64,000 nucleotides of DNA from Chloroflexia bacterium (GCA_035474135.1 DATINP010000180.1:20599-84598); one strand, 5' to 3'; numbered from the stretch's first letter, positions 9,328 to 28,600 are shown. The notes: generated from the sequence alone by a model not told the origin. Translations and numbers: made by a program.

Positions 9328-11016
9328 ATGTCGACAACCACCAATTCCTCAACTACCCCATCGGCAGATGATCACCGGTCGTCTTACTATATCGTGGGTG
9401 GCTTGGCGGTTGCTTGCGCGCTTGTATTCCTCTTCGCGGGGATGCGGCACAATCAATCGGTCTCGTTTCCGGTTGATGATGGCTTTATATACAGCAATTA
9501 TGTGCTTGGCGCCTCGACGGGCCACCCGTTCGATTATAACCCGGGCGAAGCTAGCGGCGGTATAACCGGCCTGGGCTGGTTATTGCTATGCACAGTTACG
9601 TACTGGCTGCTGATCCCCTTCCACGCTTTATTAGGCGGGTTGGCACCGCCTGAAGTGCAGGCGGTTAGCGCCGACCTGGCCCAACAGACGGGCCATTTGC
9701 TACTCGCGGCCTATATACCGGCCGTGGCGTGCTTTGCCTTCACGGTAATGGGCGTATACCGCCTGGCTCTGCTCACCCTCCCCCTATCCGCGCGCAATCC
9801 GCGCTCCCGCAACTTTATGGCTGTGATCATAGCTTTTGCAGTGGCGGGCGACATCACGCTAGTGTGGGGCACCCTCTCCGGCCTTGAAGTGCCTCTGTCG
9901 CTGGTGCTCTCAGTGTGGGCGGTGGTATTCTTGCTGATCGAATACAAACAGGGCGCTCTGCGGTGGTCTTTACTGTTCGTGGCGCTGCTGCCGTGGGCGC
10001 GGCCCGACCTGCTGGCTATCAGCGGCGCGGCCTTCGCCTGGCTGCTACTGCGCTCCGTGTTCGAGGCTGGGCAACAGGGGCGTACTGCCGCACTTCGTAA
10101 TGTTGGTCTCTACGCGGCTGCTATCGTGCTGGGGCTCGCGGCCATGAGTTCAATCTACTTCGTGGGTTGGGGGCGGCCCCTGCCTGCGTCCTTCTACGCC
10201 AAGGTGCGTAGCCTGCGTTTCGGAGATGACATGTTTACGGCCATGCGCCAGCTGCTGTTGGGCGGGCGAGACTTTCCGATTATCGCGGGCGTGGTGGCAC
10301 TGGCGGGTGGCCTCGTGCAGATTGTATTGCCTCCTCGCTCTCCGGACAAGGAGAAAGGTGGCGAGGACTTTTGGAACACGCTGCTGGTGCTTCTTGTAGG
10401 GGTGGTGTATCTGCTGGCGATCATGCTCACTCTCTCGTGGTTCGGGCAAGAAGAGCGGTACACGATGCCACTGCACCCGTTCGGCATTGTGCTCATTGGT
10501 TTGCTGGTGTGGCGCCTGCTTGATCTGCTGCCGGTTGACCGGGTGTTTGCCCTTCCGGTCGTGCAGCCCCTCGCCCTGGCGGCTATTGGGCTGGTGCTAC
10601 TGGCGACCGACTACGTGTGGGCGACCAGGCAGTACGTGGTAGAGGTGCGTAATATCCGAGATGCGCACATTATCCCTGCACTTTGGATCAGCGCCAATGT
10701 GCCTGCCGGCGATCTTGTCGCCTCAGAACCCATAGGCGCGATCCGGCTGTTTTCGGGCCACCGGACGTTCGATATAGTAGGTCTGACCAGTCCGGCTGCC
10801 CTCGGTACCTATCGGGACTGGCCGCGCTCCTGGGAGATGCTACACGCTCAGGCTCCCGACTATTTTCTTTACTACCCATCCCTTTATCCGGGCGGCGCTC
10901 CACCCGCGTGGGCGACAGATGTACAGCAGTTCCCCGTGCCGGACAACCGCATTGCAGGGGCAGACCTGATCGCAGTGTACAAGTTCGACTGGTCAAAGTA
11001 TACGCCCGGCCCCTAG
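9328..11016 (+). CDS. Polytopic integral membrane protein, possibly a GT-C-fold glycosyltransferase-like protein.
   Basis: More than 12 hydrophobic segments and an N-terminal periplasmic-side VDDGFIY motif. There is no clear family signature. Confidence 0.4.
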   Translation: MSTTTNSSTTPSADDHRSSYYIVGGLAVACALVFLFAGMRHNQSVSFPVDDGFIYSNYVLGASTGHPFDYNPGEASGGITGLGWLLLCTVTYWLLIPFHALLGGLAPPEVQAVSADLAQQTGHLLLAAYIPAVACFAFTVMGVYRLALLTLPLSARNPRSRNFMAVIIAFAVAGDITLVWGTLSGLEVPLSLVLSVWAVVFLLIEYKQGALRWSLLFVALLPWARPDLLAISGAAFAWLLLRSVFEAGQQGRTAALRNVGLYAAAIVLGLAAMSSIYFVGWGRPLPASFYAKVRSLRFGDDMFTAMRQLLLGGRDFPIIAGVVALAGGLVQIVLPPRSPDKEKGGEDFWNTLLVLLVGVVYLLAIMLTLSWFGQEERYTMPLHPFGIVLIGLLVWRLLDLLPVDRVFALPVVQPLALAAIGLVLLATDYVWATRQYVVEVRNIRDAHIIPALWISANVPAGDLVASEPIGAIRLFSGHRTFDIVGLTSPAALGTYRDWPRSWEMLHAQAPDYFLYYPSLYPGGAPPAWATDVQQFPVPDNRIAGADLIAVYKFDWSKYTPGP

Positions 11017-13464: not shown

Positions 13465-15144
13465 CTACCTGGCGGCAGCCGCCTTGCGTCCGGCGCGCCT
13501 TAGGAACCAACCCGCGAGCAACATTAGCACCGACGCCGCGCCAAGCCACACCGGCAGGCTTGAAGGACCCGCGCCTGTGACGGGATTGACCCTGGGGGGT
13601 GAGCCGTCAACAGTTGATGGCTTGCCTCCGCTTGCATTACCCTTCGTTGAGCCATTGCCACTTGTCGCGTCAACCACCCCGCCGCCGTCGTTGCTGCTAT
13701 TAGGAGGCAGTACCTGTGCGGGTGGGGGCGCGGAAGTCGGGGCCGGTGTCGGCTTTAGCACGGTTGGGGCGGGCGTAGGCTTTTGAGGGGTTACACCGGG
13801 CTTCACATCAGAATCGCCCTTACTCTTATTTGATGTAGCCGTGGCTACAGGGACCGCGTGCGATGGCACCCCTGTTGGAATGAGCACTACGCCACTTGGC
13901 ACAGCCACTGGTACCAGAGCCGTGGACTGGGCCGGAGGCGCCGCCCCAGCGACAGTAGTACTTACGCCTTGCGGAACCGCAGGAGTAGCATTCGTGTTGG
14001 CGGTGCTCAGAGGAGGAGGCCCACCGTTTGGCGAATCGCCTGCATTACTACCGCCAGACCGTGGCGTAGCCGTTGCTGTATCTGCGGGCAGCACTGGCCC
14101 TTCTACAACGCTCTCAGGTTGAGCCGCGTTTGGTTGGGCAATAGCGCTCTCATTGCCTTGCGTGCCGTTCGGCTGGTCGCCACCTTGTGGGGCGTCTGCC
14201 TGCGATGTCGCCTGAGGCGCTTCGGTAGGAGGCGGTGCAGGTGTATCTGTGGCAAGCGGTGTAGCAGATGCCGTGGGGGTATCGGTAGCTATTGGTGTTG
14301 GGCTGATCTTCGGGCGCGCAGTTGGCGTAGGAGATGCGTCTTGTTGCGCGAGCGTAGCTGTTGCCTTGGGTTGCCCGGTGCCGCCGCCCTTCGTGGAAGG
14401 AGCGGTGGTATAGGTGGGTGGCACGAGACCTGGGGTATCAGTGGGCGCAATAGGCGTGGCGCTGGCGGTTGGTGCGGTCTGGCTGGTGGGGCTGGCCTCG
14501 GGACCTCCGGTGCCGCTCGCCCACAAGAGCACTTGCCCTGTGGCATTGCTGAACAGCGTGCCGTAAGGAAGATACACGGTAATGCTGTTGATGCCCGTAT
14601 TGGTCACGAGCAACGTACCATTACCCAATGCAGGGTTCTGCGTCGACGGAGTAAGGGTCAGGGGGGCGATAGTCGCCTGTCCACTCTGAACCACGGTCAA
14701 GAGATTACGACCATCGGGGTTCCAACTGGGGGTGCCGGGTGAACTGGCCGCTGCGTCCACGATGCGTTGGGCAATTGTGTGGTCTCCGGCAGGCCAGGCA
14801 TTGTTTTGCATCCACCATACCGCCAGGGCTACCTGGTCAGGTTCTGTTGCGGTATAGCCCCAATCAATGCCGTAGAAAAGAGCCGTGCGTACGGCATCAG
14901 GAGCGAGAGATTGTATGGCCAGGTCCAGCGTGCCTGTAGGCAGGGCGGCTCCGGGTTGCAGCGCGATGCCGCTCACTTCGATACTGCCAGTACTGCCTGC
15001 CGGAATTGTAACTGACCACCCGGGCACAGCGCCAAGGGGGGCTGCCAGGGCGGAAGATGAAAATAAGCCTGCAATACCAACGAAAAGGATAGCGCAAGCC
15101 GCCAACAAGCGTAGAGTACGACGGAGAAACCGGGGCTTATACAA
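13465..15144 (-). CDS. Secreted protein with a long Pro/Thr/Ala-rich low-complexity region and a C-terminal hydrophobic anchor followed by a basic tail.
   Basis: Signal peptide. A folded domain of about 200 aa is followed by an extensive PT-rich region. The C-terminus is LPVWLGAASVLMLLAGWFLRRAGRKAAAAR. Confidence 0.5.
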   Translation of the reverse strand: MYKPRFLRRTLRLLAACAILFVGIAGLFSSSALAAPLGAVPGWSVTIPAGSTGSIEVSGIALQPGAALPTGTLDLAIQSLAPDAVRTALFYGIDWGYTATEPDQVALAVWWMQNNAWPAGDHTIAQRIVDAAASSPGTPSWNPDGRNLLTVVQSGQATIAPLTLTPSTQNPALGNGTLLVTNTGINSITVYLPYGTLFSNATGQVLLWASGTGGPEASPTSQTAPTASATPIAPTDTPGLVPPTYTTAPSTKGGGTGQPKATATLAQQDASPTPTARPKISPTPIATDTPTASATPLATDTPAPPPTEAPQATSQADAPQGGDQPNGTQGNESAIAQPNAAQPESVVEGPVLPADTATATPRSGGSNAGDSPNGGPPPLSTANTNATPAVPQGVSTTVAGAAPPAQSTALVPVAVPSGVVLIPTGVPSHAVPVATATSNKSKGDSDVKPGVTPQKPTPAPTVLKPTPAPTSAPPPAQVLPPNSSNDGGGVVDATSGNGSTKGNASGGKPSTVDGSPPRVNPVTGAGPSSLPVWLGAASVLMLLAGWFLRRAGRKAAAAR

Positions 15145-15293: not shown

Positions 15294-16355
15294 TTGCAGC
15301 AGAATGCTGTGTTACTTTGCTCGCCTGGGGGTGTTTCTTTGTTTGATGTGAACTTGCCTGAAATTACACGCGATCCGAATGGCTCGAACGAACCGAATTA
15401 CAGTCGTTACCGGATCGAACCGCTCCAGCCCGGCTGGGGTACTACGCTGGGCGCAAGCCTGCGTCGAATCATGATTTCTTCATTGCATGGAGCCGCCGTC
15501 ACGGGTCTCCGTCTGGCCGAACTACCTGATGATCCGAATGAGATACCGGGTATCCGCGAGAACTTGATCGACTTGGTACTCAATGTGAAACAATTGCGCT
15601 TTCGCATTTCGGAAGACATGGCTTTGGCCGACGAAAATACTCAGATGCACGTCTACCTCAATTACCCCAACACCGAGGCAGGCGACATTACCGCCGAAAG
15701 CCTGGAAGTGCCTGAGGGGTTAGAGATTATCAACCCCGAAACGCTGATCGCCGAGGCCACGGGTGATGGCACGCCTTTCCAGCTGGATTTGCTGGTCCAA
15801 ACGGGCATTGGATATGAGACCGCCGAGGCTCGTATCGAAGTGCCGGACGATATGATCCCCGTGGACGCCATGTATACGCCCATTCCCCGCGTCAGTTATG
15901 TAGTAGAGCGTACCCGCGTGGGTCAGATGACTGACTATGATCGTCTTCTGCTGGAGATATGGACCGACGGCACCATTGATCCTGACGACGCCGTAAGCCA
16001 GGCCGCACGCATCCTCACCCAGTACGCGACCGCGGTAGCCGGGTATGGCCGTGATATCGCCGACTTGGGTATCGACGAGCCGGTGGCCCCCGTGGAAGAC
16101 GACACGAATCGGTCGATCGAGGTGCTGAACCTCAGCATGAGAACCACCAACGCCCTGAAGCGTGCCAATATCACTACGATAGGCCAGATTCTCTCGCTGA
16201 GTGACAACGACCTGCTCCACCTGCGCAACTTCGGCACCAAATCGCTTGACGAGCTGAAGGATGCGCTCGCCGCGAATGGCTACGCAATCCGGTCCGACGA
16301 ATCAGCCGAGGACATCGACGAGGACGTATCGGACGACGAGGACGCCGAACTCTAA
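15294..16355 (+). CDS. rpoA: DNA-directed RNA polymerase alpha subunit (complete NTD and CTD) with an acidic C-terminal tail.
   Basis: IEPLQPGWGTTLGASLRRIMISSL matches the conserved alpha-NTD motif ([22 protein letters not shown]). There is a helix-hairpin-helix alphaCTD (RTTNALKRANITTIGQIL). The tail is DESAEDIDEDVSDDEDAEL. The listed start is TTG and the true start is uncertain. Confidence 0.85.
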   Translation: MQQNAVLLCSPGGVSLFDVNLPEITRDPNGSNEPNYSRYRIEPLQPGWGTTLGASLRRIMISSLHGAAVTGLRLAELPDDPNEIPGIRENLIDLVLNVKQLRFRISEDMALADENTQMHVYLNYPNTEAGDITAESLEVPEGLEIINPETLIAEATGDGTPFQLDLLVQTGIGYETAEARIEVPDDMIPVDAMYTPIPRVSYVVERTRVGQMTDYDRLLLEIWTDGTIDPDDAVSQAARILTQYATAVAGYGRDIADLGIDEPVAPVEDDTNRSIEVLNLSMRTTNALKRANITTIGQILSLSDNDLLHLRNFGTKSLDELKDALAANGYAIRSDESAEDIDEDVSDDEDAEL

Positions 16356-17680
16356 TCCCCTCGCGCATGATCGGGCACGCGTGTCAGGATGAGTGCCGCG
16401 ATTATCATACAGGTTGCCGCCATTATAAACACTCCCCTGTAGGATTGGGTGGCGTCGATAAGCAGGCCGGCGGCGAATGCCCCCAGTGGCTGTGCGACCG
16501 ACCAAACCATATTGGCATAGCCCATAAATGCTCCGGCCCGGTTCTTTGGAACCAGGTCGGCCAGCATGGAGAGATTGAGCGCAGTGGGCGCGGCGTTTCC
16601 CACTCCGATCATAACTATCACTGGGATCGCTTGCCAGATATTGTGTACCTGCGACCCGGCAAGCGCGGCGATCGCGAACAGGCCAAGAGCGGGTTGCAGA
16701 ACGCGCTTCCGTCCCCACCTGTCGGCCAGCCACCCCCATGCAAGTGCCCCTATTGGCGTTGAGATTACCAGCACCAGCAGCAATATGAAGGAGTCTTTCT
16801 CCGACACGCCCAGTTCCACCACGCCGAAGCGCGTAATGAACGGCGCAGCCGCCCCTGCCCCCAGCCAGTAGACTGCTATTGCCAGCACGTAGACCGCCAG
16901 CGGCTTCTGAGACAGGAGCGCCTTGACCAGAGACCCTGCTTTCGCGTGCTCGCTCGTATGCGCAGGCTGGGTGCGGGGCTCGCGCACACCGAAGGCCACC
17001 AGGACGAGTGATAACAACACCACTATCGCAGTGATCACAAATACCCACCCGCGCGCCGTATCCCACAGCGTTATCGAAAGTAGTGTGAAAATAAGCGCGC
17101 CACCTACCCCGGCGATGGCTATCCAGCTTCCCATCCGGCCGCGCTGTGAATAGGGGGTGATGTCGGCCAGGAGCGTTGAATACGGCCCGACTGCGATGAA
17201 CAGAAAAACGCCTGTTAGCGTGACCGCCGCCACCATGATCCAGAATGGCGGTTGAATGGCCAGCACAGCGAGGCAAGCAGCCGTGCCTATCCCCCCGACC
17301 AGCAGGAAGGGGCTTCGCTTACCAAGCCTGTTGTGTGTGCGATCGCTCAGGTGGCCGATAAGAGGCTGTATCAGCCCGCCGAATAGTGAGCGCTCGTTCG
17401 TAAGTAAGCCCACGATCGCGGCAGGCACCGGTCCACCCGGATTGAGAAACGCTGGCAAACCCAGGGGCATCGTGTAAGCAAGCAAGAACAGGGGCAGCGC
17501 GTTGTTCATCATCGTGAACACCAGCCCACCCGCCACACCGCCCACCGCATAGAAAAATATTTGCAGGGGGCTTAGAGGGGCAATACGGCGTTCCGGCCCC
17601 TGTTGTTCTTCAAGGCCCTCCGCTTCAAGTTCTCGCGCAAGTTCCTCTCCCGCGAGCAGTGTTTCTTCTTCGGTCTGCAC
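16352..17680 (-). CDS. MFS transporter.
   Basis: 12 predicted TM segments and the MFS signature GRLSDRxGRK-like motifs (GHLSDRTHNRLGKR; ADRWGRKR). Confidence 0.8.
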   Translation of the reverse strand: MQTEEETLLAGEELARELEAEGLEEQQGPERRIAPLSPLQIFFYAVGGVAGGLVFTMMNNALPLFLLAYTMPLGLPAFLNPGGPVPAAIVGLLTNERSLFGGLIQPLIGHLSDRTHNRLGKRSPFLLVGGIGTAACLAVLAIQPPFWIMVAAVTLTGVFLFIAVGPYSTLLADITPYSQRGRMGSWIAIAGVGGALIFTLLSITLWDTARGWVFVITAIVVLLSLVLVAFGVREPRTQPAHTSEHAKAGSLVKALLSQKPLAVYVLAIAVYWLGAGAAAPFITRFGVVELGVSEKDSFILLLVLVISTPIGALAWGWLADRWGRKRVLQPALGLFAIAALAGSQVHNIWQAIPVIVMIGVGNAAPTALNLSMLADLVPKNRAGAFMGYANMVWSVAQPLGAFAAGLLIDATQSYRGVFIMAATCMIIAALILTRVPDHARGD

Positions 17681-17769
17681 GAAGAAAGTATACCGTATTG
17701 CTGGAGGATGGACGACCGATGTCTGGAGAACTAGCTGACGTCGTCAGTCGTCTGCTGTCAGTCGTCCGT

Positions 17770-18516
17770 CTATCTGTACTTGCCTCGTATCCCGTTAATC
17801 CTGATCTTGGCGAGGCCAAGCAGAGCGCGGGAGGCGTCACGCGCGATACGTACCTTTGTGCCCGTCTCGTCGTGCCAGTGGACGGGCACCTCTTTGATGC
17901 GTAGGTGGTGCTTTTGGGCTATGAATAGCACTTCGGCATCAAAGCTCCAATCGTCAATGACCGACCGCGAAAACAACGTCTGGGCCGCGTCGTGTGTGAA
18001 GCACTTGAAACCGCAGGTAATATCCGAAATGCCCCGAGTAGCGATCCTGTTGGTCAGCCAGGTGAAGACCTTGCCCATGCTTTCACGCCAAAGTGGCTGG
18101 TGCTTCTCCAGCACGGCGCCCGCCATCTTGCGCGACCCAATGACCACGTCGAACCCGGCCTCGAACCACGGCCAGAACTTCCCGATTTCGGCGGGGGGAG
18201 TGGACAGGTCGGCATCAGTGAACAGCACGTATTCCCCGCGAGCGGCCAGCATGCCCACCTTCAACGCGTGCCCCTTGCCTCGGTTTGGCCTCGACTCGAT
18301 CACGTTCACGTCTGTTCCGTCGCCCAGTATCCGGCGAGCCATTTGTGCCGTATCATCACTGGAGCCGTCGTCCACCACCACGAACTCCACGCTGTAATCC
18401 TGCCCACGGAAGAAATCGGCAAGCAGGGGGAGAGTGTGCCGCATGCGTCGGGTTTCGTTGTACATGGGCACAACGATCGACAGTTTCGGCGGTGTGTTCG
18501 CATGCGCGTCGGTCAT
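17770..18516 (-). CDS. GT2 family glycosyltransferase (dolichyl/polyprenyl-phosphate sugar synthase-like).
   Basis: LSIVVPMYNE, VVDDGSSD (DXD-type) and TDADL motifs typical of GT2. 248 aa. Confidence 0.8.
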   Translation of the reverse strand: MTDAHANTPPKLSIVVPMYNETRRMRHTLPLLADFFRGQDYSVEFVVVDDGSSDDTAQMARRILGDGTDVNVIESRPNRGKGHALKVGMLAARGEYVLFTDADLSTPPAEIGKFWPWFEAGFDVVIGSRKMAGAVLEKHQPLWRESMGKVFTWLTNRIATRGISDITCGFKCFTHDAAQTLFSRSVIDDWSFDAEVLFIAQKHHLRIKEVPVHWHDETGTKVRIARDASRALLGLAKIRINGIRGKYR

Positions 18517-19727
18517 ATCCGGTTCTCCAGAACCTTGATTATCATTTGAGCATCAGTGTTGGCGGCCTGCTGTCTGGCATGGGCCGCCTTCAACAACTGG
18601 AGGCCTTCCTCAGCGCGCCCTGCCCACAACGCCCTCAACCTGGCCTCCATCTCGTCAGGGTCAGGCAGCTTCCGCTCGATCTCGACCACCCAGCGCTCAG
18701 CACCCACCTCGCTCATGAACCCTCGCACTTTGCGCGCATAAGAAAGCGCGAGAATGGGCACGCCCTGTGCCGCGGCGAAGATCAGCGCATGCAGCCTCAT
18801 GCTCACAAGCAAGTCGGCTTTGCCCACGAGGCCGGCTAGCTTGCCCGGCGTGTCCTCTATCTGGGCGCGCACCATCGCGTCGTCCGGCACGCCCTTCTCG
18901 CGGGCCGCCTTCGCGATCAATTCCAGCATCTCCTCGTCACGGTGCGGCCACAGAGGCAGCAGCACTACCCGTGCCCCGAACTCCTCTACCGCAACCTGGA
19001 TGGAGCGGGCCGCGCCTTCCACCAGGCTTTCTACGCGCCCCGGATCCTGCCGACCCTCCAGGCCGAGGCGGTGCCGTATGCTCACGGGCAGGATATAGGT
19101 GAGCGTGAAGCCGGGTTCGATGCCGGGCAGATGCCGCACACAGAATATCACAACGGGCTTGCCGTCATCGGGCCAATTCACATCCACCGGCTCGGGTTCG
19201 AGCAGTATGGCCGGGTCTGCGGTCACTTGTACATACCGTGGCGACACCCCCGCCAATACCAGCAGTCGTTTGGATGCTGTGTCACGTACGCTAAAATAGT
19301 CGGCGGAGCGGCAGATAAAGCGCGCCATCAGCCTACCAAGTAACGTCCAGAGGGGTTCTACGCCCAGCCCCCAGCCGATCACCCTTACTCCCAGCAACCG
19401 GGCAACGGCTACGTAGATAGCGTACACGGGCAGGTTATACAGGCTCGTGCCGTCCTGAATCAGCCCACCCCCGCCGAGGATGAGCGCCTTCGCGCCCACG
19501 AGCGAACGGAAGGTGGCGGGGTTGAACAGCTTGCGGGAAAGGCTCTTTACGCCAAGTTGCGAGTCGGTCTTGGCGGGATTTGTGGAGAGCGCCACCAGGT
19601 CGTCGAAGCCGCTCGACCGGAGCCTGGTCACAATGACCTGCGCCAGCGCCTCGTCCCCGGTATTGTTACTGCCGTACCAGCCCAGGATCACTATTCGGCT
19701 GCGTGTCTGCTGTGCGTTGCTTGTCAT
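18513..19727 (-). CDS. Polysaccharide pyruvyl transferase (CsaB/WcaK-like).
   Basis: N-terminal ILGWYGSNNTGDEALAQVIV matches the PS_pyruv_trans family. The length and C-terminal region fit. It overlaps the flanking glycosyltransferase genes by 4 nt, which suggests an operon. Confidence 0.7.
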   Translation of the reverse strand: MTSNAQQTRSRIVILGWYGSNNTGDEALAQVIVTRLRSSGFDDLVALSTNPAKTDSQLGVKSLSRKLFNPATFRSLVGAKALILGGGGLIQDGTSLYNLPVYAIYVAVARLLGVRVIGWGLGVEPLWTLLGRLMARFICRSADYFSVRDTASKRLLVLAGVSPRYVQVTADPAILLEPEPVDVNWPDDGKPVVIFCVRHLPGIEPGFTLTYILPVSIRHRLGLEGRQDPGRVESLVEGAARSIQVAVEEFGARVVLLPLWPHRDEEMLELIAKAAREKGVPDDAMVRAQIEDTPGKLAGLVGKADLLVSMRLHALIFAAAQGVPILALSYARKVRGFMSEVGAERWVVEIERKLPDPDEMEARLRALWAGRAEEGLQLLKAAHARQQAANTDAQMIIKVLENRI

Positions 19728-20881
19728 TCGTCGCTGGGGATGCGTGGGTCGTCGCTCGTAGGCCGCCTATCTTCGCCTGCCTGTTCACCACGTGACTGGA
19801 TAATCTTCAGGAACACCTGCAAATAACGGCGAGCTATGATGTCCCACGAATAGCGATCCCGTGCGAATGCTCGCGCACGCTGGCCCAGCCTTGACCTCTC
19901 CTCGTCATCCGCCAGCAATTCGAGGATCGTCTCCACGTACGCATCGGTGTCCAGGGGGTCGAGCAGGGTGCCGTTTTCGCCCGGCACTATCGCTTCAGGT
20001 ATACCGTCGAGTTTGGAGGCGACCACGTAGCGCCCTGCTGCCGCCGCTTCGAGCGCGACCAACCCGAACCCCTCGATGTCGTTCTGAACTGGGATGTTGG
20101 GCATTATGAACAGGTCCGCGATGCTGTACGCCGCACGTAAGGTGTCATCGTCTACTCTGCCCAGCAGACATACGTGATTGCCGAGGTGCAGGGACGCGAT
20201 GCGGGTCTCGATCAGGTCGCGCTGGGGGCCTTCGCCGACGATCAAATAGGTGATGTCCTGCCTGTGTGCTAGCAGTCGTGGCATGATCTCGGTCAAGAAA
20301 TGCACCACACCTTTGCGCTCGATGAGTCGGCCCACAGTGAGGAGCACCTTGCGGTCGCGGATCATGCGCCCCGCGTGCATTTGCAGATTGCGCATGCCCG
20401 CCGAGGTGAACTGATCAGCGAACTCAAGCATATTGACCCCGTTGGGGATCACCTCGCACAGGGCCGCAGGCACACCCCGGCGAATACACTGGGTGCGTGT
20501 ATAGCTGCTGACGCAAATAACCTTGTCCATACGCCGCAGGCACCTGGGAATGAGCCACTGGTAGGCGCGATTGTCGTAGGTCACATCCAGCCCATGTATC
20601 GTGACCACCACGGGCACGCGCAACAACGTCTTAAGCGCGAGGCCCAGCGGCGCGAGAAGGGCATCCGAGAGGTGTATCAGCTTTATATGGCCCGAGCGCG
20701 GCACAGTGAGGACGGCGCGCAGAAACGCGTACACAACAAAAAAAGGCACGAACACGGTCGAACCGCCCCAGTAGATGGTGGAGGTGGGTGTAAGGCGCCC
20801 GATCTCCTTGGTCAGGCTCTGGCTCAGTTTTTGCATGCCCCCCACCGAGGGCGGGTGCTTGCGCGTGATAAACAGTATCAT
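19724..20881 (-). CDS. GT4 family glycosyltransferase.
   Basis: Retaining GT-B C-terminal EGFGLVALEAAAAG motif. 385 aa. Confidence 0.8.
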   Translation of the reverse strand: MILFITRKHPPSVGGMQKLSQSLTKEIGRLTPTSTIYWGGSTVFVPFFVVYAFLRAVLTVPRSGHIKLIHLSDALLAPLGLALKTLLRVPVVVTIHGLDVTYDNRAYQWLIPRCLRRMDKVICVSSYTRTQCIRRGVPAALCEVIPNGVNMLEFADQFTSAGMRNLQMHAGRMIRDRKVLLTVGRLIERKGVVHFLTEIMPRLLAHRQDITYLIVGEGPQRDLIETRIASLHLGNHVCLLGRVDDDTLRAAYSIADLFIMPNIPVQNDIEGFGLVALEAAAAGRYVVASKLDGIPEAIVPGENGTLLDPLDTDAYVETILELLADDEERSRLGQRARAFARDRYSWDIIARRYLQVFLKIIQSRGEQAGEDRRPTSDDPRIPSDE

Positions 20882-21056
20882 TTCAAGGTCACTACCGAAG
20901 AAGGCTTTTGGCTACACTTTTGTATCCCGTCTATTTTACCCTATTAGGGCAAACGAGAATCGCAAACTATAGCTGAGGGGTCACAAGTGAGGACGGCCAC
21001 GACTCAATTCCAGTCGCGAATAATTGAAACATGACACATGACTTACGATCTACGAT

Positions 21057-22004
21057 CTATGACACGTCGCGATCTACGACTCGGCCCAGCGCTGCGCTGA
21101 TTGCTCCCCACACGCCCGCCCCGAGGATCGACCACAGGCGCGCAAGAAGGGCTGCGGCGGTGGCCACGGGTGCGGGCACACCGAGCACACCCAGCAGGCT
21201 CACTATAATGAACTCACGCACGCCCAGCCCCTGTGGCACCACCACCGCCAGATAGCCGCCGACCCAGGCCGCTGTGAATATGCCTGTCACGACGGGAATG
21301 TAGTACAGCGCCAGCCCCGGATACAGCGCAGACAGCAACGAGAAGAATATTAGCCCGAATGCGACCCAATTTAGCACAAACGGGATCAGCAACTGCAGGA
21401 CATCTTTCGAGGACAAATGCACCCCGAGCGGCTTGCGCCCGATCCGGCGCAGCCCCCAATCGACCAACCGGAAAAAGAGGTCGGGTCGCCAGATTACGCC
21501 CACGAGCACCACAAGTGCGAGTGCTGCTATCCACAACGGGGGGTTGGGCCATGCCACCAGGCTCAGCCCCGCCACCACCACAGCCGCAAGCAAGTTCAGC
21601 ACAGACTCAATCGCCACGCTGATCACGCCGCTTAGCCTGGGTACGCCCTCCTTTTCGGCAAGATACACGCGTCCCACGACGTGCCACACTGACCCCGGCA
21701 AGTACGCAGCCAGCGCGGAGTAGTAGAGTATTTGTGTGCTGCGCTTGAAAGGCAAAGCATAGCCCAGCTTGCGCAGGATCAGCCACCACCCCCACACCGG
21801 CAGTGGTCCCCGCGCGACCAGCACCACTAGCGCTACTACCAGCCAGCCCAGCTCCAATTGCCAATCGTAGTCAGCGAACTTGGGGCCGAGGTCGTAGATG
21901 GCCAGCGCAAAGAAGGCCACGATCAGTACCGTGATTACGACTTGCGCCGTGCGCCGCACTTTGGGCGTTGCCAGCCATCGCCTGATCTCAGTCGCAGTCA
22001 ACAC
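21057..22004 (-). CDS. Membrane protein with a flippase-like domain (lysylphosphatidylglycerol synthase TM region, UPF0104).
   Basis: Eight TM segments with a pattern typical of TIGR00374-like proteins. It abuts the peptidase gene downstream (22004/22006). Confidence 0.55.
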   Translation of the reverse strand: MLTATEIRRWLATPKVRRTAQVVITVLIVAFFALAIYDLGPKFADYDWQLELGWLVVALVVLVARGPLPVWGWWLILRKLGYALPFKRSTQILYYSALAAYLPGSVWHVVGRVYLAEKEGVPRLSGVISVAIESVLNLLAAVVVAGLSLVAWPNPPLWIAALALVVLVGVIWRPDLFFRLVDWGLRRIGRKPLGVHLSSKDVLQLLIPFVLNWVAFGLIFFSLLSALYPGLALYYIPVVTGIFTAAWVGGYLAVVVPQGLGVREFIIVSLLGVLGVPAPVATAAALLARLWSILGAGVWGAISAALGRVVDRDVS

Positions 22005-22005
22005 G

Positions 22006-24249
22006 TTAGTAGGCCAGGTAGGCCGCGAAGATCGATTTGAGATCGGCCTGCGAGTGTGCTTGTAAGATGGTCAACAGTCCTTCCGGGGTGGCGCGCTTGA
22101 ACCTGTAGGTGGTGTAATAATCACGCAGGGCGGCGTAAAATGCATGATCACCCATCGCCTTACGCACCTTGCCTAGCATGACGGTGCCGCTGTCGTAGAC
22201 CGCTGCAGTGTACTGGCTCTCGCTGGCGAACCCGCTGTATACGCCCGCCGACACGGGTCTGCTGGCAGTTGCGCCCGAGGTCATGCCGGCGAACGCTTGG
22301 CTGTATGTGCTTGCAAAGTTGGCGCGTATATACTCGGTGGTCATGAAGGTGGTCATCGCTTCATCAAGCCAGGGGTCGGTAAGCTGGTTATTGCCCACAG
22401 TCGAGTAAAACCACTGGTGGCCCACCTCGTGGACCGGCGTGTACCAGGTCCAAGTGCCGAACGCAGTGCCGTAGGCCAGCCACTGGCTTGGTATGAAATA
22501 GGCCATTGGGTACTCTTGAGCATAGTTGTCCGTCTTTTCGAGCGGCACCCCCATTTCGGCTATGGTATAGGTGTCGAAGGGGTAAGCGCCTATCTTTTCG
22601 CCGAACCAGCCGAGCGCGGGAGCGGTCAGGTCAAGCTGGCGCTGGCCCGCCTCTTTGTGGCCCCGCAGGTAAAAGGCCAGCATCGTAACGTCGCCTACTT
22701 GCCTGGTCATTGAAGCGTCATCATAGGGATTGATAAAGCGGGGCGAGACCACGTAGGCCACATCCCGAACGTTATCAGCCTCGAACCTCCAGTAGGTGCC
22801 GTCGCTGCTGCGTTCCACAGCGTCGCCTGTGCCGCCCACCACGAGCTTTTCGCCGCCCGAAGATTTTACCACGATAGAGTAGTGGGCGGAAGCGTTATTC
22901 CCCAGGTCGCCCAGTTCGGAGTAGGGGTAGTATTGCCAGCCACCATTCTCATACGGCACGAGCGTGGGCAACATATCCCCCAGCGTCAGGATGTCGTTAT
23001 CGACATCATAGCCGGTGCGCCCGCCCACAGGTCGGGGCGCAAGGTCGGCCTCCAGTTCAACCGTGACCTCGCCGCCGGGGGGCACAGCCTGAGGCAATGC
23101 CACTTCGAGGTTTATATCTTCGAGCCAGCGCGTTTCGGCGGCTTGTCCGTTCACCTGGACGCTCTCGATTGTGAGGACGCCGTCCCAGTGTTTCCATGGT
23201 GCGCGCAATATAAGAGCGCCCAGTTCGGAGTCCGACCCATTGCTCAGGCTGACCGTTTCTTCGAGGTGTACTTCACGGTCCGGTGCTTCGCCTACGGTGA
23301 TGCTTGCGCTGTACTGGGCGTCCATGTTCGCCTCGTGGCGGTCGGCATATCGCCACTGCCAGTAGTGCCGCCCCACGTTACCCATCTCGACCCTGGTGGC
23401 CGCCGGGTTACCGGGGTTGTAAGTGAGGGTGCGCCGCTCGAACAGTTGCACTAGCACCGTACTGGCCTTGCCGTTGATGGGTACGGTTATCCAGTACGGT
23501 TCTGTTATCGGGTAGCCCAGCGTGGGCAGCCAATGTGAGTTCTGAGTTCCGCGTTCCGAGTTCTGAGTTGTTGTGTCTGAATCAGCTGTGGTTTGGGCGA
23601 AGCTCCAGAACACGTCCGCCCAGTTGTGGCCCGAGGCTTCTTCGTAGCGCCCTATGGTAATGCTAGCGGGCGGGTTCTCCTCCGGCACGACTTCGGCTGT
23701 GGCGCCGTCCACGCGCAGAAGGGACATATCCCCCAGTGGCTGGCCTTCCTGATTGCCTGCGTGCCCGGTCAGTCCCGCGAAGTCTGCGTACGTGGGGCCT
23801 CCGTTGCCATCGCCTGCCACCGCCACATTAGCCGGGCCGATCTCATAAACGTGGCCTCCTCCCGTTTCCGTGGCCCCTGCCACCATCTCTTTCACAAGCA
23901 GACCGCTGGTAACGTACCAGGGCGAATTCTTATCTCCTTGCGGGTCGTTGACCTCCAGTCGTCCCTTGTCGAAATACTGCACCAGGTGGTTGCCCTGTGG
24001 CGTGTCGCTGTACGGTTCGTACTCGGTATAGAAGGCTCCCGGCCCCCACATCCACACATGGTCGCCACAGGTTGTACAACCCTCGTCTGCCGTCCATCTT
24101 GCGTGGATAGCCGCATCCGCGAACCCCTCGGATGGTGCGCGCAGTGGGGCAGCTTTGGCGGGTGTGACGTTTGCTATTGCACCCAGCGCTAGACCGGCTA
24201 CACACAGGAATGTGGCTCGGCGCGAGATATTTCGGGCGTGAGGGTTCAT
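22006..24249 (-). CDS. Secreted gluzincin metallopeptidase, M1-like (HEXXH...E), with a Tat-like signal.
   Basis: N-terminal [29 protein letters not shown] is followed by WLDEAMTTF, which matches the M1 HExxH-x18-E arrangement. Confidence 0.6.
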
Positions 24250-24378
24250 AGACCCAGTATATCATCTTGTCCCAATATAGCCCCTGTGCTATACTGCCCC
24301 AGTCCTTATCTATTTCCCCTTTATTTGCGCCACGTTCACGGAAGCAGGCTTACAAGCACTCCAAGAGGAGACCCCGCT

Positions 24379-26853
24379 ATGAAACTCAATTTCAGTCGCT
24401 CCCCGTTCGTAGTTATCGTCGTTTTGATCCTGTTGGCGCTGGTGCCTTTGTCCGCGATTGTCGTCACGGTGGCGAGGGCAGGCGCGTCTCTCGCGATGCC
24501 ATCTGCCGCGCCCTCGACCGCGGGCGATTGGCCGATGTACGGGCACGACGTCAGCCGCACCAACTACAACCCCGACGAAACCACGATCAGCGCGGCCAAC
24601 GTCAACCAACTTGTGCAACGCTGGGAAATGCAAGTTGGCTCAGGCACTACCGCTACGTCAAGCGGGCCTTCGGTAGCTAACGGCAAGGTCTACGTGGGCA
24701 GCAGTGTTGCTTCGGGCAACAACTTCTTCTCGTTCGACGCGGTGTCGGGCGCGTCCGCCTGGTCGAAGAACCTCGGCTACTATAACACCTGCTTCAACGT
24801 CGGCATCGGTTCGACGGCGGCTATTTCGGGCAGCGTGGTGATAGTTGGCGGTGGTGACCAGCCGAACGTTGCCTACTACGGACTCGATGCGAACGACGGC
24901 CATCAGCTCTGGCGCGTGCCCATAAACGCGGGGGCGAGCGCTTTCACATGGGCGTCGCCATTGATTGCAAATGGGCGTACCTACTGGGGGGTATCGTCGC
25001 GTTGTGATAACCCCTCGGTACGTGGCGAGGTGCGCGGCCTCGACTATGACACAGGCCTGAATCCTCTCAGCGCCTACTTTGTGAACTCAGGGCAGGCCGG
25101 GGGCGGCGTGTGGAACTCGCCCGCTCTCAGTCCCGACGGCAGCACCCTGGTCGCAGCCACGGGCGAAGACTATAGCTGCAATCCTTGCACCTATGTTCGC
25201 TCGATGGTAACGATGGACCCGGCTACCATGAACATTCTGCAATGGGACAAGCAGGGGAGCGACAACACCGACCAGGACTGGGGTAGCACACCCCTCATCT
25301 TCCACGACAGCCAGGGTCGCATCCTCGTGAGCGCACACCTCAAATCGGTCGGCGGGGGCGACCCACCCAACGTCTTCACCTACGTGCTGAATGACGTGAG
25401 TAGCGGCCCCATCTGGCAGCGCAACACCAGCCTCAGCACGGGCATGATGGACGCCTACGACCCGACAGTCGGGAGCGGCGGCACGCTGTTCATCTTCGGC
25501 GGCAGCAACACGCTCTACGCTGTGGACCCTGCGACAGGCGTAGACCGCTGGACGCCTGTGTCGGTTGGTACTACAGCGGCCCACGCGAATATGGCGCTTG
25601 CCAACGGCCTGATCTTCATCAACCTCGGCAACTCCGGCCTCCAGATACGAAGCGAGGCGAACGGCAGCCTCCTGCGCACACTGCCTCCCTCGCATCCCGG
25701 CTCGACTAACTCCGGAGTGGCTGTGTCGCATGGCTTCATCTACTGGTTGTCAGGCTCGTATCTCAATGCATGGAGCCTTCCCGAAGGCAGTCTCACCCCC
25801 ACGCCCACACCTACCGCTATACCGACGCATACTGTCACCAATACGCCTCTTTCAACAATAACGCCCACTAACACCCCGACGCATACCGTTACAGATACGC
25901 CGGTGCCGAGTGCGACGCACACGCCCACCCATACAGCCGTGCCGAGCGTAACGAACACCTTTACCGCCGTGCCGACCCATACTTCGACGAACACACCCGT
26001 TCCATCCAGAACGCACACACCCACTCTCACCCCGACCACGCCTCCCACCCAGACTCCTGGCGGACCGACTGCTACGAACACGCCCACCGATACGCCCACG
26101 ATCGTACCGACAGACACGATCATACCGACAGATACACTCGTACCTACAGCGACAGAGACAGTAACGGGCACGCCACCCACGGTCACTGAAACGCCCACAG
26201 CCTGCGCGCTCTCGTTCGAGGACGTGCCGCCCGGCTCTACCTTCTACCCCTACATCCAGTGTATGGCCTGCCAGGGCATCATCAATGGCTACCCCTGCGG
26301 TGGTGACGGCGAACCCTGCGACCCCGGCAATAATCCTTACTTTAGACCGGGCAACAACGTCACCAGAGGACAGTTCGCCAAGATCGCGGCTAACGCTGCG
26401 GGCTTCGACGAAACACCGGGCGCGCAGCAGTACGAGGACGTGCTCCCCGGTTCTACCTTCTACGACTTCATCTGGCGCTTGACCGATCGGGATCTTGTGT
26501 CGGGTTACCCGTGCGGCGGCCCAGGCGAACCGTGCGGCCCTACCAATCTGCCATACTTCCGCCCAAGTGCAAACATCACGAGGGGGCAGATCAGCAAGAT
26601 AGACGCGAATGCTGCGGGCTTCGACGAAACACCAGGCGCGCAGCAATACGAGGATGTGCTCCCCGGTTCTACCTTCTACGACTTCATCTGGCGCTTGAGC
26701 GATCGTGGCATCATGAATGGATACCCGTGCGGCGGAGTAGGTGAACCGTGCGACCCTACCAACCTGCCGTACTTCCGCCCCGGCGCCGACGCAACGAGGG
26801 GTCAGGCCAGCAAGATCGTGTCGAACACATTCTTCCCAGCCTGCGCTCCCTGA
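24379..26853 (+). CDS. Cell-surface protein with an N-terminal anchor or signal, a PQQ-like beta-propeller, a PT-rich linker and three tandem C-terminal SLH-like domains. Each SLH-like domain carries a Cys-rich insert (GYPCGGxGEPCxPxNxPYFRP).
   Basis: BamB/PQQ-like repeats (GKVYVGS..., LYAVD...). Three units of about 70 aa match the SLH pattern F-DV...I..L...GI..GY...FRP..ITRGQ.AKI. The first in-frame ATG with a hydrophobic N-terminus is at 24379. The track ORF starts at 24238. Confidence 0.6.
26386..26810 (+). repeat. Two near-identical 210-bp tandem DNA repeats encoding SLH-like domains 2 and 3. A more divergent first copy lies upstream at about 26215.
   Basis: The sequence gctgcgggcttcgacgaaacacc(g/a)ggcgcgcagca(g/a)tacgagga(c/t)gtgctccccggttctaccttctacgacttcatctggcgcttga is repeated with very few mismatches. 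Confidence 0.6.
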
Positions 26854-26941
26854 TCTGACCGGCCCGCCTGCGTCGAACGTCATAGTGGACACCCTCCCAC
26901 ACAGGAGTGTCCACTATGCATTTCCCGAATAAGATAAAGTA

Positions 26942-28600
26942 ATGCTACTCGTTCAATTCACCAAAGTAAGCAAAGACTACGCGGGCAACCCGGTACTCGA
27001 CGAGGTTGATCTCGAGATAATAGAGGGCGACCGGATCGGACTTGTCGGCGAGAACGGCGGCGGCAAGTCAACACTCTTCAAGCTGATCACAGGCGTCGAG
27101 CAGCCCACAGAGGGAAGCGTGACCCGGCGGCGCAACCTCACCATCGGCTATCTTACGCAGGAGGCCGACCCCGCGCAGCAGGACAAGAGTGTGTTCGAGG
27201 CGGTGTCCGAGATCTCGCCCGAAGCCACGGCGTTAGCCTCGCGCCTCCACGAACTCGAAACTGCCATGTCCACCACGCGCTTTGCGGAAGACGTTGAGTA
27301 CATGGAGCAGGTGTTGACCTCTTACACCGAGGCCCAGGAGCGATTCGACGCGCTGGGTGGCTTTGCACTCGAACACCAGGTGGGGGACGTGCTGAACGGG
27401 TTGGGGTTCGGCGCGGACCGGTATACGCAGACCGTCGGATCGCTCAGTGGTGGCGAAAAGAAACTGGTCAACCTTGCGCGCATCCTGCTCAAGAAGCCCG
27501 ACTTGCTCTTGCTCGACGAGCCTGACAACCATCTCGACCTTGAAGCCAAAGTGTGGCTTGAGGGCTTCATTCGCTCCTATTCCGGAACGGTGCTGATAAT
27601 CTCGCACGACCGCTATTTGCTGGAGCAGGTGGTCAAGAAGATATATGAGCTTGAGGACGGACAGATCTCGGTCTTTGTGGGGAACTACAGCTACTTCGCC
27701 GAAGAGAGGAAGCGTCGTTTGCTCAAGCGTCAGGAGACCTACTCGCTTCAACAGGAAGAGATAAAGCGGCTGGAGGTCATATTGCGCAACCTTACTTCTT
27801 GGGCGAAGCAAAACCCCAAGTTTGCGCCTCGCGCACGCAGCATGGAAAAACGTGTGGAGCGCGCCCGCCGCGAAGCCGCCGAGCGCCCCATCCTCCTGCG
27901 CGACCGCATCAAGGTGACCTTCGATTCTGAGCGTAGCGGGGTGAAGGTGCTGGAGCTAAAGGGCGTAAGCAAGTCGATGAATGGGCGCTCACTCCTTCGG
28001 CCCATCTACCTGACGGTGCTGTACGGAGAACGTGTAGCCCTGGTCGGCCCGAACGGTAGCGGCAAAACCACGCTTCTGCGCATTATCGCCGGCCTGATCC
28101 CGCCCGATGGAGGTTCTATCCGAATGGGGCCGAGTGTGCTGCCCGGCTACTACACACAGGAGCACGAATCGCTACCCCTCGATATGACTCCTATGGACTT
28201 TGTGCGCAGCATCAAACCCATCACCGAGCAAGCGGCCATCAGTACCCTGCGAACATTGCTCTTTTCCTACAGGGATATGCACAACACGATAGGCAGCCTA
28301 AGCGGCGGAGAGAAAAGTCGCCTCCAGATCGCCCGCCTCATGCTTACCGATGCCAACTTCTTGATCCTGGACGAGCCGACCAACAACCTCGATATCGCTT
28401 CGATAGAAGTGCTGGAGACCGCACTGGCGAACTTTGATGGAACGATCCTGACGGTGTCACACGATCGCTATTTCCTCGATAAGATTGTGACCAAGACGGT
28501 GGCCCTATCGCCGGGCAGCGAAGCGCGGTTCTACGCCGGCAACTACTCATACTACTTAGAAAAGCGCGCTCAGCCCGGCTACATAGCGGAAAGCGTGTAG
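26942..28600 (+). CDS. ABC-F family ATPase (two tandem ABC domains, no TM domain).
   Basis: Two Walker A motifs (GENGGGKST; GPNGSGKTT), two LSGGE signatures and an inter-domain linker. 552 aa. Confidence 0.85.
   Translation: MLLVQFTKVSKDYAGNPVLDEVDLEIIEGDRIGLVGENGGGKSTLFKLITGVEQPTEGSVTRRRNLTIGYLTQEADPAQQDKSVFEAVSEISPEATALASRLHELETAMSTTRFAEDVEYMEQVLTSYTEAQERFDALGGFALEHQVGDVLNGLGFGADRYTQTVGSLSGGEKKLVNLARILLKKPDLLLLDEPDNHLDLEAKVWLEGFIRSYSGTVLIISHDRYLLEQVVKKIYELEDGQISVFVGNYSYFAEERKRRLLKRQETYSLQQEEIKRLEVILRNLTSWAKQNPKFAPRARSMEKRVERARREAAERPILLRDRIKVTFDSERSGVKVLELKGVSKSMNGRSLLRPIYLTVLYGERVALVGPNGSGKTTLLRIIAGLIPPDGGSIRMGPSVLPGYYTQEHESLPLDMTPMDFVRSIKPITEQAAISTLRTLLFSYRDMHNTIGSLSGGEKSRLQIARLMLTDANFLILDEPTNNLDIASIEVLETALANFDGTILTVSHDRYFLDKIVTKTVALSPGSEARFYAGNYSYYLEKRAQPGYIAESV

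Follow-up and report, generated by a model that had tools for sequence, protein, structure and literature searches.

A CsaB-like pyruvyl transferase module beside a propeller protein with Cys-looped SLH repeats in a Chloroflexia bacterium: possible parts of one surface display system

A 64,000-nt stretch of DNA from a Chloroflexia bacterium (GCA_035474135.1 DATINP010000180.1:20599-84598; called the window here, and the source of all coordinates below) contains a module of genes for two glycosyltransferases (GTs), a CsaB-like ketal-pyruvyl transferase, and a flippase-like membrane protein, near which lies the gene for a beta-propeller exoprotein that ends in three S-layer homology (SLH) domains with an unusual Cys-bearing insert. 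Gene calls were taken from a table of open reading frames (ORFs), and the Pfam scan covered the 38 largest ORFs of the window. In the order of minus-strand transcription, an M1-like metallopeptidase gene is followed by the gene for the flippase-like protein, a gap of 175 nt, the GT4, CsaB-like, and GT2 genes, and, after a further 89 nt, the gene for a major facilitator superfamily (MFS) transporter. A preliminary description of this DNA, made from the sequence alone, had reported that the three enzyme genes overlap by 4 nt each and that a flippase-like gene follows. Both points hold: the GT4/CsaB-like and CsaB-like/GT2 junctions are literal ATGA stop/start overlaps, and because this is so at both junctions, the three enzyme genes are translationally coupled. 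The features are listed below.

18513..19727, minus strand: CsaB-like ketal-pyruvyl transferase, 404 aa (Pfam PS_pyruv_trans, 116 bits)
17770..18516, minus strand: GT2 glycosyltransferase, 248 aa (Pfam Glycos_transf_2, 94.6 bits)
19724..20881, minus strand: GT4 (GT-B) glycosyltransferase, 385 aa (Glycos_transf_1, 129 bits, and Glyco_transf_4, 66 bits)
21057..22004, minus strand: LPG_synthase_TM or "flippase-like" (MprF N-terminal) membrane protein, 315 aa (PF03706, 69.7 bits; gathering threshold, 33.4)
24379..26853, plus strand: beta-propeller-SLH exoprotein, 824 aa (Pfam PQQ_2, 50.3 bits; PQQ, 40.6 bits; SLH, 52.2 bits)
24520..25791, plus strand: its PQQ/BamB-like beta-propeller domain (Pfam PQQ_2 and PQQ)
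25792..26196, plus strand: its Thr/Pro-rich linker, 135 aa (39% Thr and 21% Pro)
26197..26850, plus strand: its SLH trimer (repeats at 26197-26412, 26413-26628, and 26629-26850)
26293..26337, plus strand: Cys-loop insert of SLH1 (from a motif scan; 12-residue gap versus 8bz2)
26509..26553, plus strand: Cys-loop insert of SLH2 (C106 and C113 invariant)
26725..26769, plus strand: Cys-loop insert of SLH3 (C178 and C185 invariant)
22006..24249, minus strand: secreted M1-like zinc metallopeptidase, 747 aa (Peptidase_M1, 58.9 bits over residues 606-744)
16352..17680, minus strand: MFS transporter (Pfam MFS_1, 134 bits; MFS_2, 89.8 bits)

The gene at 18513..19727 had been taken for a polysaccharide pyruvyl transferase of the CsaB kind, and the profile searches bear this out. 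Its product covers positions 1-278 of the 280 in PF04230, far above the gathering threshold of 25.3 bits, and matches the NCBIfam CsaB model (TIGR03609) with 203.1 bits (E 6e-60; equivalog cut-off, 213.1), whereas the WcaK models reach only 21.9 and 19.4 bits (cut-offs, 399 and 727), on a 58-residue stretch only. By these scores the enzyme is predicted to be specifically CsaB-like and not WcaK-like. Mutagenesis of CsaB from Paenibacillus alvei has identified R148, H308, and K328 as the residues binding phosphoenolpyruvate (PEP) (PMC10435577). When these positions are mapped by motif, rather than by alignment to the P. alvei sequence, their counterparts R148 (in SVRD), H313 (in RLHA), and K333 are found to be invariant in 55 homologues, and the spacing of 20 between the His and the Lys is the same in both enzymes. 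In the region of the acceptor residues Y14 and F16 of P. alvei CsaB, the local motif here is GWYGS. The AlphaFold2 (AF2) model of the enzyme (pLDDT 90.4) has a GT-B-like fold of two Rossmann domains, for which Foldseek retrieved generic GT-B folds, such as UDP-GlcNAc 2-epimerases, with no solved pyruvyl transferase among the top 50 matches; a sequence search of the PDB gave no match, and an exact-sequence look-up of the protein gave no record. Its 182 relatives come, where named, only from Chloroflexia or Chloroflexota, and they stand to the SLH proteins described below at roughly one per dozen, a ratio that is crude but sensible.

The partner enzymes depart from those expected of a classical secondary cell wall polymer (SCWP) locus. 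The top seven PDB sequence matches of the GT2 are to ArnC (9bhc and 8vxh), DPMS (5mlz), and GtrB (5ekp), with E values from 6e-15 to 3e-13, and the alignment to ArnC spans residues 10-213; its top NCBIfam models, namely, PgfS, ArnC, and a dolichyl-phosphate hexose transferase, all score far under their cut-offs. By sequence comparison, the GT2 is closest to the polyprenyl-phosphate sugar synthases (ArnC, archaeal DPM synthase, and GtrB); there is no GT-C gene in the window. The best solved relatives of the GT4, which has a hydrophobic segment at residues 36-60, are PimA (4n9w/2gej; E 4e-24), PimB', BshA, and MshA, and of these, PimA and PimB' glycosylate a membrane lipid. The flippase-like protein has about eight hydrophobic segments and matches TIGR00374 with 32.4 bits (cut-off, 43.2); a PDB sequence search with it found no solved relative. 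The proposal of the preliminary description that this is an SCWP pyruvylation locus is hence supported in part: the transferase is CsaB-like, but in place of TagO and TagA it is accompanied by a GT2 of the Dpm1/ArnC kind, a GT4 resembling PimA, and a flippase homologue of the MprF type.

We compared the window with eight related loci (L001 to L008) from genomes and metagenome assemblies, all from Chloroflexia, Chloroflexi, or Chloroflexota where named. The flippase-like, GT4 (in one or two copies), and CsaB-like genes occur together in all eight, with CsaB identity falling from 75% to 39%, and the GT2 is present in all seven loci that reach past the CsaB-like gene (L003 ends inside it). The GT4 is the best-conserved gene of the module, at 65-90% identity across the related loci. 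In L006 the module is kept in a different chromosomal neighborhood, with identities of 65% for the GT4, 63% for the GT2, and 39% for CsaB. The SLH gene is less faithful: it adjoins the module here, in L001 (with full synteny), and in L004/L005, where it has swapped places with the peptidase gene, these related loci having a CsaB identity of 68-75%; in L008 a different SLH protein gene ends 6 kb from the module. Because this adjacency is lost in L002, L003, L006, and L007, the functional unit is the four-gene module, to which the neighboring SLH gene is, at most, loosely attached. Other beta-propeller proteins, lacking SLH domains, are encoded at L003 4009-5007 (minus strand), L004 1378-2640 (plus strand), and L007 2551-3819 (plus strand), where they adjoin the module or the peptidase gene in relatives without the PQQ-SLH gene. 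Two of the three are WD40 proteins, and the other resembles BNR/Ycf48 proteins and has an N-terminal anchor.

Large polytopic membrane proteins are encoded next to the GT2 in L002 (12167-13768, minus strand) and L006 (13319-15088 and 15075-16643, both minus strand). Two of these L002/L006 proteins are homologous to each other (46-52% identity, with a shared VGDDYNY motif) and match no family, and the second protein of L006 has a weak similarity to the GT-C arabinofuranosyltransferase AftB; an epimerase gene is also present in L006. The GT2, the epimerase, and the GT-C-like proteins of L006 fit a PgfS/PgfE/PgfM-like set, which suits a polyprenyl-phosphate-sugar route feeding extracytoplasmic GT-C enzymes. 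No homologue of these GT-C-like membrane proteins is encoded in the window. The large membrane or uncharacterized proteins beside the GT2 in L007 and L008 were also considered as GT-C-like candidates and rejected, as they are not homologous to those of L002/L006 and match no family.

The second element of the locus is the propeller-SLH protein. Its ORF had been listed with a GTG start at 24238, which overlaps the start of the peptidase gene. We instead favor the ATG at 24379 as the most likely start, because it is preceded at 8 nt by a GGAGA Shine-Dalgarno sequence and yields a protein of 824 aa, equal in length to the L004 homologue; a promoter-like site at 24267-24295, before this ATG, adds weak support. 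The protein consists of a signal peptide or anchor (the N-terminal hydrophobic segment scores 3.3), the PQQ/BamB-like propeller, the Thr/Pro linker, and the C-terminal SLH trimer. The propeller matches the NCBIfam "acido-empty-quinoprotein" (35 bits) and BamB (33 bits) models far under their cut-offs, and the Pfam and NCBIfam matches give no evidence for the binding of pyrroloquinoline quinone. The linker is built of degenerate TPT/THT units, and in the family consensus, too, TPTPT linkers of this kind are found ahead of the SLH trimer; such linkers are candidate O-glycosylation sites.

The three repeats, of 72 aa each, form a 216-nt period in the DNA, with 73-77% identity at the nucleotide level. 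That they are SLH-like had been proposed from their appearance, and each now passes the Pfam SLH gathering score of 20.8 (PF00395), with 32.0, 21.3, and 21.7 bits, rising to 38.5, 28.9, and 29.3 bits when the Cys insert is deleted; the profile is likewise matched by all 52 scanned members of the Cys-loop trimer family. The AF2 model of the trimer, built with 87 family sequences, has a pLDDT of 93.8 and a pTM of 0.89, and the best 15 PDB matches found for it by Foldseek are all Sap/SpaA SLH structures (3pyw, 6bt4, and 6cw*; probability 1.00, target-normalized TM score of 0.70-0.80). Hence, the repeats are predicted to fold as a three-pronged spindle like that of Sap and SpaA. In SpaA, pyruvate is held by SLH-Arg43, a Lys of the core helix, and the backbone of SLH-Gly29, which flips on binding, while SLH-Trp13 stacks on the sugar (PMC6081394). 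In all three repeats of the 87 sequences, SLH-Gly29 (the G of "GY"), SLH-Arg43 (in TRGQ), and the Lys at +5 are invariant, and position 13 is Phe instead of Trp in 84-85 of the 87. As the Gly29, Arg43, and Lys are invariant and position 13 is aromatic in every repeat, all three grooves look, by sequence, to be competent for a ligand.

What sets these repeats apart is a loop that, in the alignment of repeat 1 to the solved SLH domain 8bz2 (E 0.0012), is exactly 12 residues longer after "GYP.G", in agreement with the two-Cys insert described earlier for each repeat. The insert begins two residues after SLH-Gly29, in the groove-lining loop, the equivalent of which is mobile in SpaA (PMC6081394), and none of the repeats has the short canonical inter-helix loop (GY-xDG-xF-xP). 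The Cys-loop repeats are thus a structural variant within the SLH family and not excluded from it. In 120 close and 146 representative homologues, the loops carry two Cys or none, with a single Cys in only 2 of about 400 loops; 6 residues separate the two Cys in 606 of 697 loops, a number that never leaves the range of 5-7; and the Glu lying between the paired Cys hardly varies. Inserts that are missing go as a whole, from repeat 1 in 33 of 34 cases. The loops are modeled with a pLDDT of 88-93, and DSSP assigns bridges at Tyr32 and Tyr48 flanking the SLH1 loop, which in the model would pair with each other to close an omega-loop. The trimer as a whole has 10 conserved Cys rather than the 6 counted previously: the 4 beyond the loops (trimer residues 3, 22, 25, and 216) comprise one before SLH1, a CxxC that only SLH1 has, in its helix 1, and one after SLH3; their role may be to fasten the two termini to this first helix.

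In searches with the trimer, we recovered 2,310 proteins in a 90%-clustered collection, and 1,196 representatives of 50%-identity clusters (out of about 1.84 billion) match at E<=1e-30. The named carriers belong to Chloroflexia or Chloroflexota, which answers the question of lineage specificity raised by the preliminary description in the affirmative. A tblastn search of the PLSDB plasmids returned only distant (25-26%) Firmicute SLH proteins and none from Chloroflexi. In 125 of 146 representatives, the trimer lies at the C-terminus, and its passengers include SBBP, Kelch, and BNR propellers, DUF7948, M14 and reprolysin peptidases, and GSDH. On this distribution, the stapled trimer is probably the general wall anchor of the lineage, carried by hundreds of different exoproteins. 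The motif scan found the Cys-loop SLH motif in no other protein of the window. Annotation pipelines already recognize the trimer as SLH. In the literature searched (for the YPCGG motif, for SLH with Chloroflexi, and for SLH with disulfide) the variant is undescribed, as is a CsaB module with GT2, GT4, and flippase-like partners, but the coverage is incomplete and this is no proof of novelty.

Taking these observations together, we propose that the window encodes two pieces of one CsaB/SLH-type surface display system with a stapled SLH trimer, a reading we regard as somewhat more probable than its competitors combined. As to the glycan, the sequence in which the steps occur, and the SLH ligand, we infer the following. 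The GT2 and GT4 would build a short lipid-linked glycan, probably linked to polyprenyl phosphate, on the cytoplasmic face of the membrane, and the CsaB-like enzyme would use PEP to place a pyruvate ketal on the terminal sugar of this glycan. Transfer of the pyruvylated product across the membrane would fall to the flippase-like protein, perhaps with the aid of the MFS transporter, and enzymes encoded elsewhere would then attach it to a wall or envelope polymer. The propeller protein, once secreted, would be held on the wall by its C-terminal SLH trimer, whose grooves keep the SpaA/Sap residues for pyruvylated N-acetylmannosamine (Gly29, Arg43, the Lys, and an aromatic at 13), and the 12-residue omega-loop (C-x6-C with the invariant Glu) after Gly29 would line the binding groove. 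It is possible that the loop Glu replaces the Glu of the lost TRAE motif and thereby fixes or re-tunes the specificity for the ligand. Going further, Chloroflexia might have evolved a pyruvate/SLH display of their own, combining disulfide-looped grooves with a TagO/TagA-independent ligand built on a polyprenyl monophosphate or glycolipid instead of a diphosphoundecaprenol-linked disaccharide; this we offer tentatively and judge more likely to be wrong than right.

Several points weigh against the proposal of one display system. The score of the CsaB-like enzyme falls 10 bits short of the NCBI equivalog cut-off of TIGR03609. The 248-aa GT2 has no hydrophobic segment, so that the transmembrane helices of ArnC and GtrB are missing. 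None of the 38 largest ORFs of the window encodes TagO, TagA, MnaA, LCP, or a Wzx-type CsaA, and the TagO, TagA, MnaA, and CsaA families were also not found in the flanks of the related loci, though they may lie elsewhere in the genome. Because no such gene occurs in the window, the acceptor glycan would seem to differ from that of every characterized CsaB, and since the partner enzymes are not TagO and TagA, a secondary wall polymer linked to peptidoglycan is only the presumed product. The SLH gene is missing beside the module in the four loci named above, and the Cys-loop family has TRGQ for TRAE and Phe for Trp13. Finally, the literature searched holds no biochemistry on any Chloroflexia wall polymer or SLH protein.

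Foremost among the alternatives is that the module makes a pyruvylated glycoconjugate unrelated to SLH anchoring, which could be a glycolipid or lipoglycan of the membrane, an O-glycan on the Thr/Pro linkers, or a decoration that GT-C enzymes transfer, with the SLH neighbor being a coincidence of synteny. The affinities of the partners lend themselves to this view: the GT4 most resembles PimA and PimB', which act on a membrane lipid, the GT2 most resembles polyprenyl-phosphate sugar synthases and PgfS of a protein glycosylation system, and the flippase homologue belongs to a lipid-flippase family, while in L006 the GT2 is accompanied by an epimerase and two large GT-C-like proteins in a Pgf-like manner. 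The adjacency behind the idea that ligand and anchor are encoded side by side, as first suggested for this locus, is seen here and in L001 and L004/L005 but is lost in half of the related loci (4 of 8). Because the SLH gene adjoins the module only in close relatives and the anchor is found on more than 1,000 different proteins, the adjacency is weak as evidence, and a chance origin is plausible; if there were one SLH gene per 50-100 genes, we estimate such an adjacency at about 5-10%. Set against this are the match to the CsaB equivalog model, far above that to any other pyruvyl transferase model, and the co-occurrence of CsaB and SLH as a rule in Terrabacteria (bioRxiv 10.1101/2021.05.31.446380; PMC6801904). 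Moreover, the SLH grooves keep the pyruvate-binding residues, which implies that a pyruvylated ligand must be made somewhere, and the CsaB-like enzyme is the only pyruvyl transferase seen in the window. On balance we hold an unrelated glycoconjugate to be rather improbable. The other reading raised at the outset, that the transferase is of the exopolysaccharide WcaK/PssM type within a larger locus, finds no counterpart in the 64 kb: Wzx, Wzy, Wzc, Wza, and an initiating phosphoglycosyl transferase are all absent from the Pfam matches of the 38 largest ORFs, and the neighbors of the module are instead rpoA, the MFS transporter, the M1 peptidase, ABC-F, LigT, SurE, and CysS. We have therefore rejected an exopolysaccharide- or capsular polysaccharide-type locus (WcaK, PssM, or GumL) on the WcaK scores of about 20 bits and the lack of export genes in the 64 kb.

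The other two alternatives concern the trimer itself. Its grooves could have been re-tuned to bind a nonpyruvylated ligand, such as another acidic sugar or modified peptidoglycan, for which there is a precedent in the cadaverine-binding SLH domain of OmpM from Negativicutes (bioRxiv 10.1101/2021.05.31.446380). The 12-residue insert with its invariant Glu, placed in the groove-lining loop of all three repeats, and the replacement of TRAE by TRGQ and of Trp13 by Phe throughout the family would accord with such a change. However, the Arg43, Gly29, and Lys that contact pyruvate are invariant in all repeats (for their roles, see PMC6081394), TRAQ occurs naturally in SLH3 of SpaA (PMC6081394), and a CsaB-like gene is found in the same genomes, which together make this unlikely. 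As for the Cys pairs, they might, with the Glu, coordinate a metal ion, given two Cys and an invariant Glu within 8 residues and three such loops per trimer plus the CxxC of SLH1. Against a metal site stand the presence of just two thiols per loop, the strict C-x(5-7)-C in a Gly/Pro-rich loop typical of a small disulfide ring, and the extracytoplasmic setting of the trimer, which is preceded by a signal sequence and by a linker of which Thr and Pro make up 60%. These, together with the appearance and disappearance of the Cys as pairs with the whole insert and their even total of 10, lead us to conclude that each loop is probably closed by a disulfide, and we consider the metal site very improbable. 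VKOR-type oxidoreductases exist in Chloroflexia (PMC4555120).

The remaining genes of the neighborhood appear peripheral to the proposed system. The M1-like peptidase has a signal peptide and an intact HEVGH-x18-E motif, as read from the translation, while its first ~600 aa match no family; only 1 nt separates its stop codon from the start of the flippase-like gene. The peptidase gene is found with the module in L001-L004 and, seemingly split or frameshifted, in L007, but it is absent from L006 and L008. It is probably a cotranscribed neighbor rather than a functional part of the module. The MFS gene, on the same strand as the GT2, is found downstream of the GT2 also in L001, L004, L005, L007, and L008; its NCBIfam matches are generic only (GPH/PgtP-like), and its stop overlaps the end of the convergent rpoA by 4 nt. 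This conserved neighbor could be a second exporter or just syntenic. The rest of the window encodes rpoA, ABC-F, LigT, SurE, CysS, aminotransferases, peptidases, a histidine kinase, and Nramp, MgtE, and similar transporters. A recent horizontal island was considered and rejected, as the GC content is flat at 0.58-0.62 without compositional anomaly and relatives have retained the synteny with rpoA, SurE, and CysS. A promoter and terminator scan of 16000-27100 gave counts not above the shuffled expectation.

A 559-aa secreted Pro/Thr/Ala-rich protein without a Pfam or NCBIfam match is encoded at 13465-15144 (minus strand) and is kept beside rpoA in L001, L004, and L007. Its C-terminus (NPVTGAG, a hydrophobic segment, and RRAGRKAAAAR) resembles a sortase-type sorting signal, which, if real, would imply a second, covalent route of wall anchoring in the same neighborhood. 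Further ORFs of 562, 650, and 978 aa, at 9328-11016 (plus strand), 40681-42633 (plus strand), and 42693-45629 (minus strand), respectively, have no Pfam match at E<=0.01.

For the noncovalent attachment of S-layers, exoenzymes, and even of outer membranes to the wall, Terrabacteria rely mainly on the SLH/CsaB system, yet its structural rules rest on only two Firmicute trimers. A large and uniform family of SLH trimers with Cys-closed loops at the glycine that binds the ligand would offer a natural experiment on how the groove loops set affinity and specificity; it would also bear on domain stabilization, which is useful for the engineering of surface display, and on the wall ligand of Chloroflexia, whose envelope chemistry is poorly known. 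The module, in turn, suggests a CsaB acceptor whose synthesis bypasses TagO and TagA. As the known principle of anchoring is unchanged, the value of these observations is incremental, the distinctive elements being the probably stapled groove loop and the TagO/TagA-independent set of partners.

Among characterized systems, the closest parallels come from Firmicutes. csaB is clustered with SLH-protein genes in P. alvei (csaB-tagA-tagO-slhA-spaA) and Bacillus anthracis (PMC6801904), and the window resembles the former in grouping a CsaB-type gene with glycosyltransferase genes and the gene of an SLH-anchored protein. The likeness extends to the enzyme, which keeps the PEP-site residues of P. alvei CsaB (PMC10435577), and to the trimer, which matches the SpaA fold (probability 1.00, target-normalized TM score of 0.70-0.78) with Gly29, Arg43, and the Lys kept. 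Unlike in P. alvei, the partners here are the Dpm1/ArnC-like GT2, the PimA-like GT4, and the MprF-type flippase in place of TagO and TagA; all three repeats have TRGQ, Phe13, and the 12-aa Cys loop after Gly29; and the C-terminal trimer carries a beta-propeller as passenger rather than an S-layer protein. As in the csaAB-sap-eag cluster of B. anthracis, a pyruvyl transferase gene is paired with a predicted exporter of a lipid-linked glycan and adjoins SLH-protein genes, and Sap (3PYW/6BT4) is the best structural match of the trimer (E 1.4e-08, target-normalized TM score of 0.76-0.80), although the identity to the Sap SLH domains is only 16-19%. The latter domains, to our knowledge, have no Cys. 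The candidate exporter here belongs to the LPG_synthase_TM family, unlike CsaA of B. anthracis, which Mesnage et al. are said to have characterized in 2000 as a Wzx/MOP-type flippase.

A different set of parallels is provided by the polyprenyl-phosphate three-component systems (GtrA/GtrB/Gtr*, ArnC/ArnT, PgfS/E/M, and Ppm1/Pmt), with which the module shares the similarity of its GT2, an adjacent flippase candidate, and, in L002/L006, GT-C-like proteins beside the GT2, with an epimerase as well in L006. It differs from them in that the GT2 is devoid of transmembrane helices, the flippase is of the MprF type and not GtrA or ArnE/F, and the window has no GT-C gene; no such system is known to us in which the flippase and the GT2 flank a GT4 and a pyruvyl transferase. 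The OmpM/SlpA tethers of diderm Terrabacteria likewise use SLH and CsaB as one system for binding pyruvylated wall polymers (bioRxiv 10.1101/2021.05.31.446380), and the closest solved sequence match to repeat 1 is the SLH-domain protein 8bz2 (E 0.0012). In contrast to those tethers, the protein described here has no porin barrel or coiled coil, and it bears three tandem C-terminal SLH domains in place of one trimerizing N-terminal SLH domain. The co-occurrence of CsaB and SLH is general in Terrabacteria, and both have been reported as lost in the monoderm clade uniting Chloroflexi, the Candidate Phyla Radiation, and Dormibacteraeota (bioRxiv 10.1101/2021.05.31.446380); the lineage represented by the window is a clear exception to that loss.

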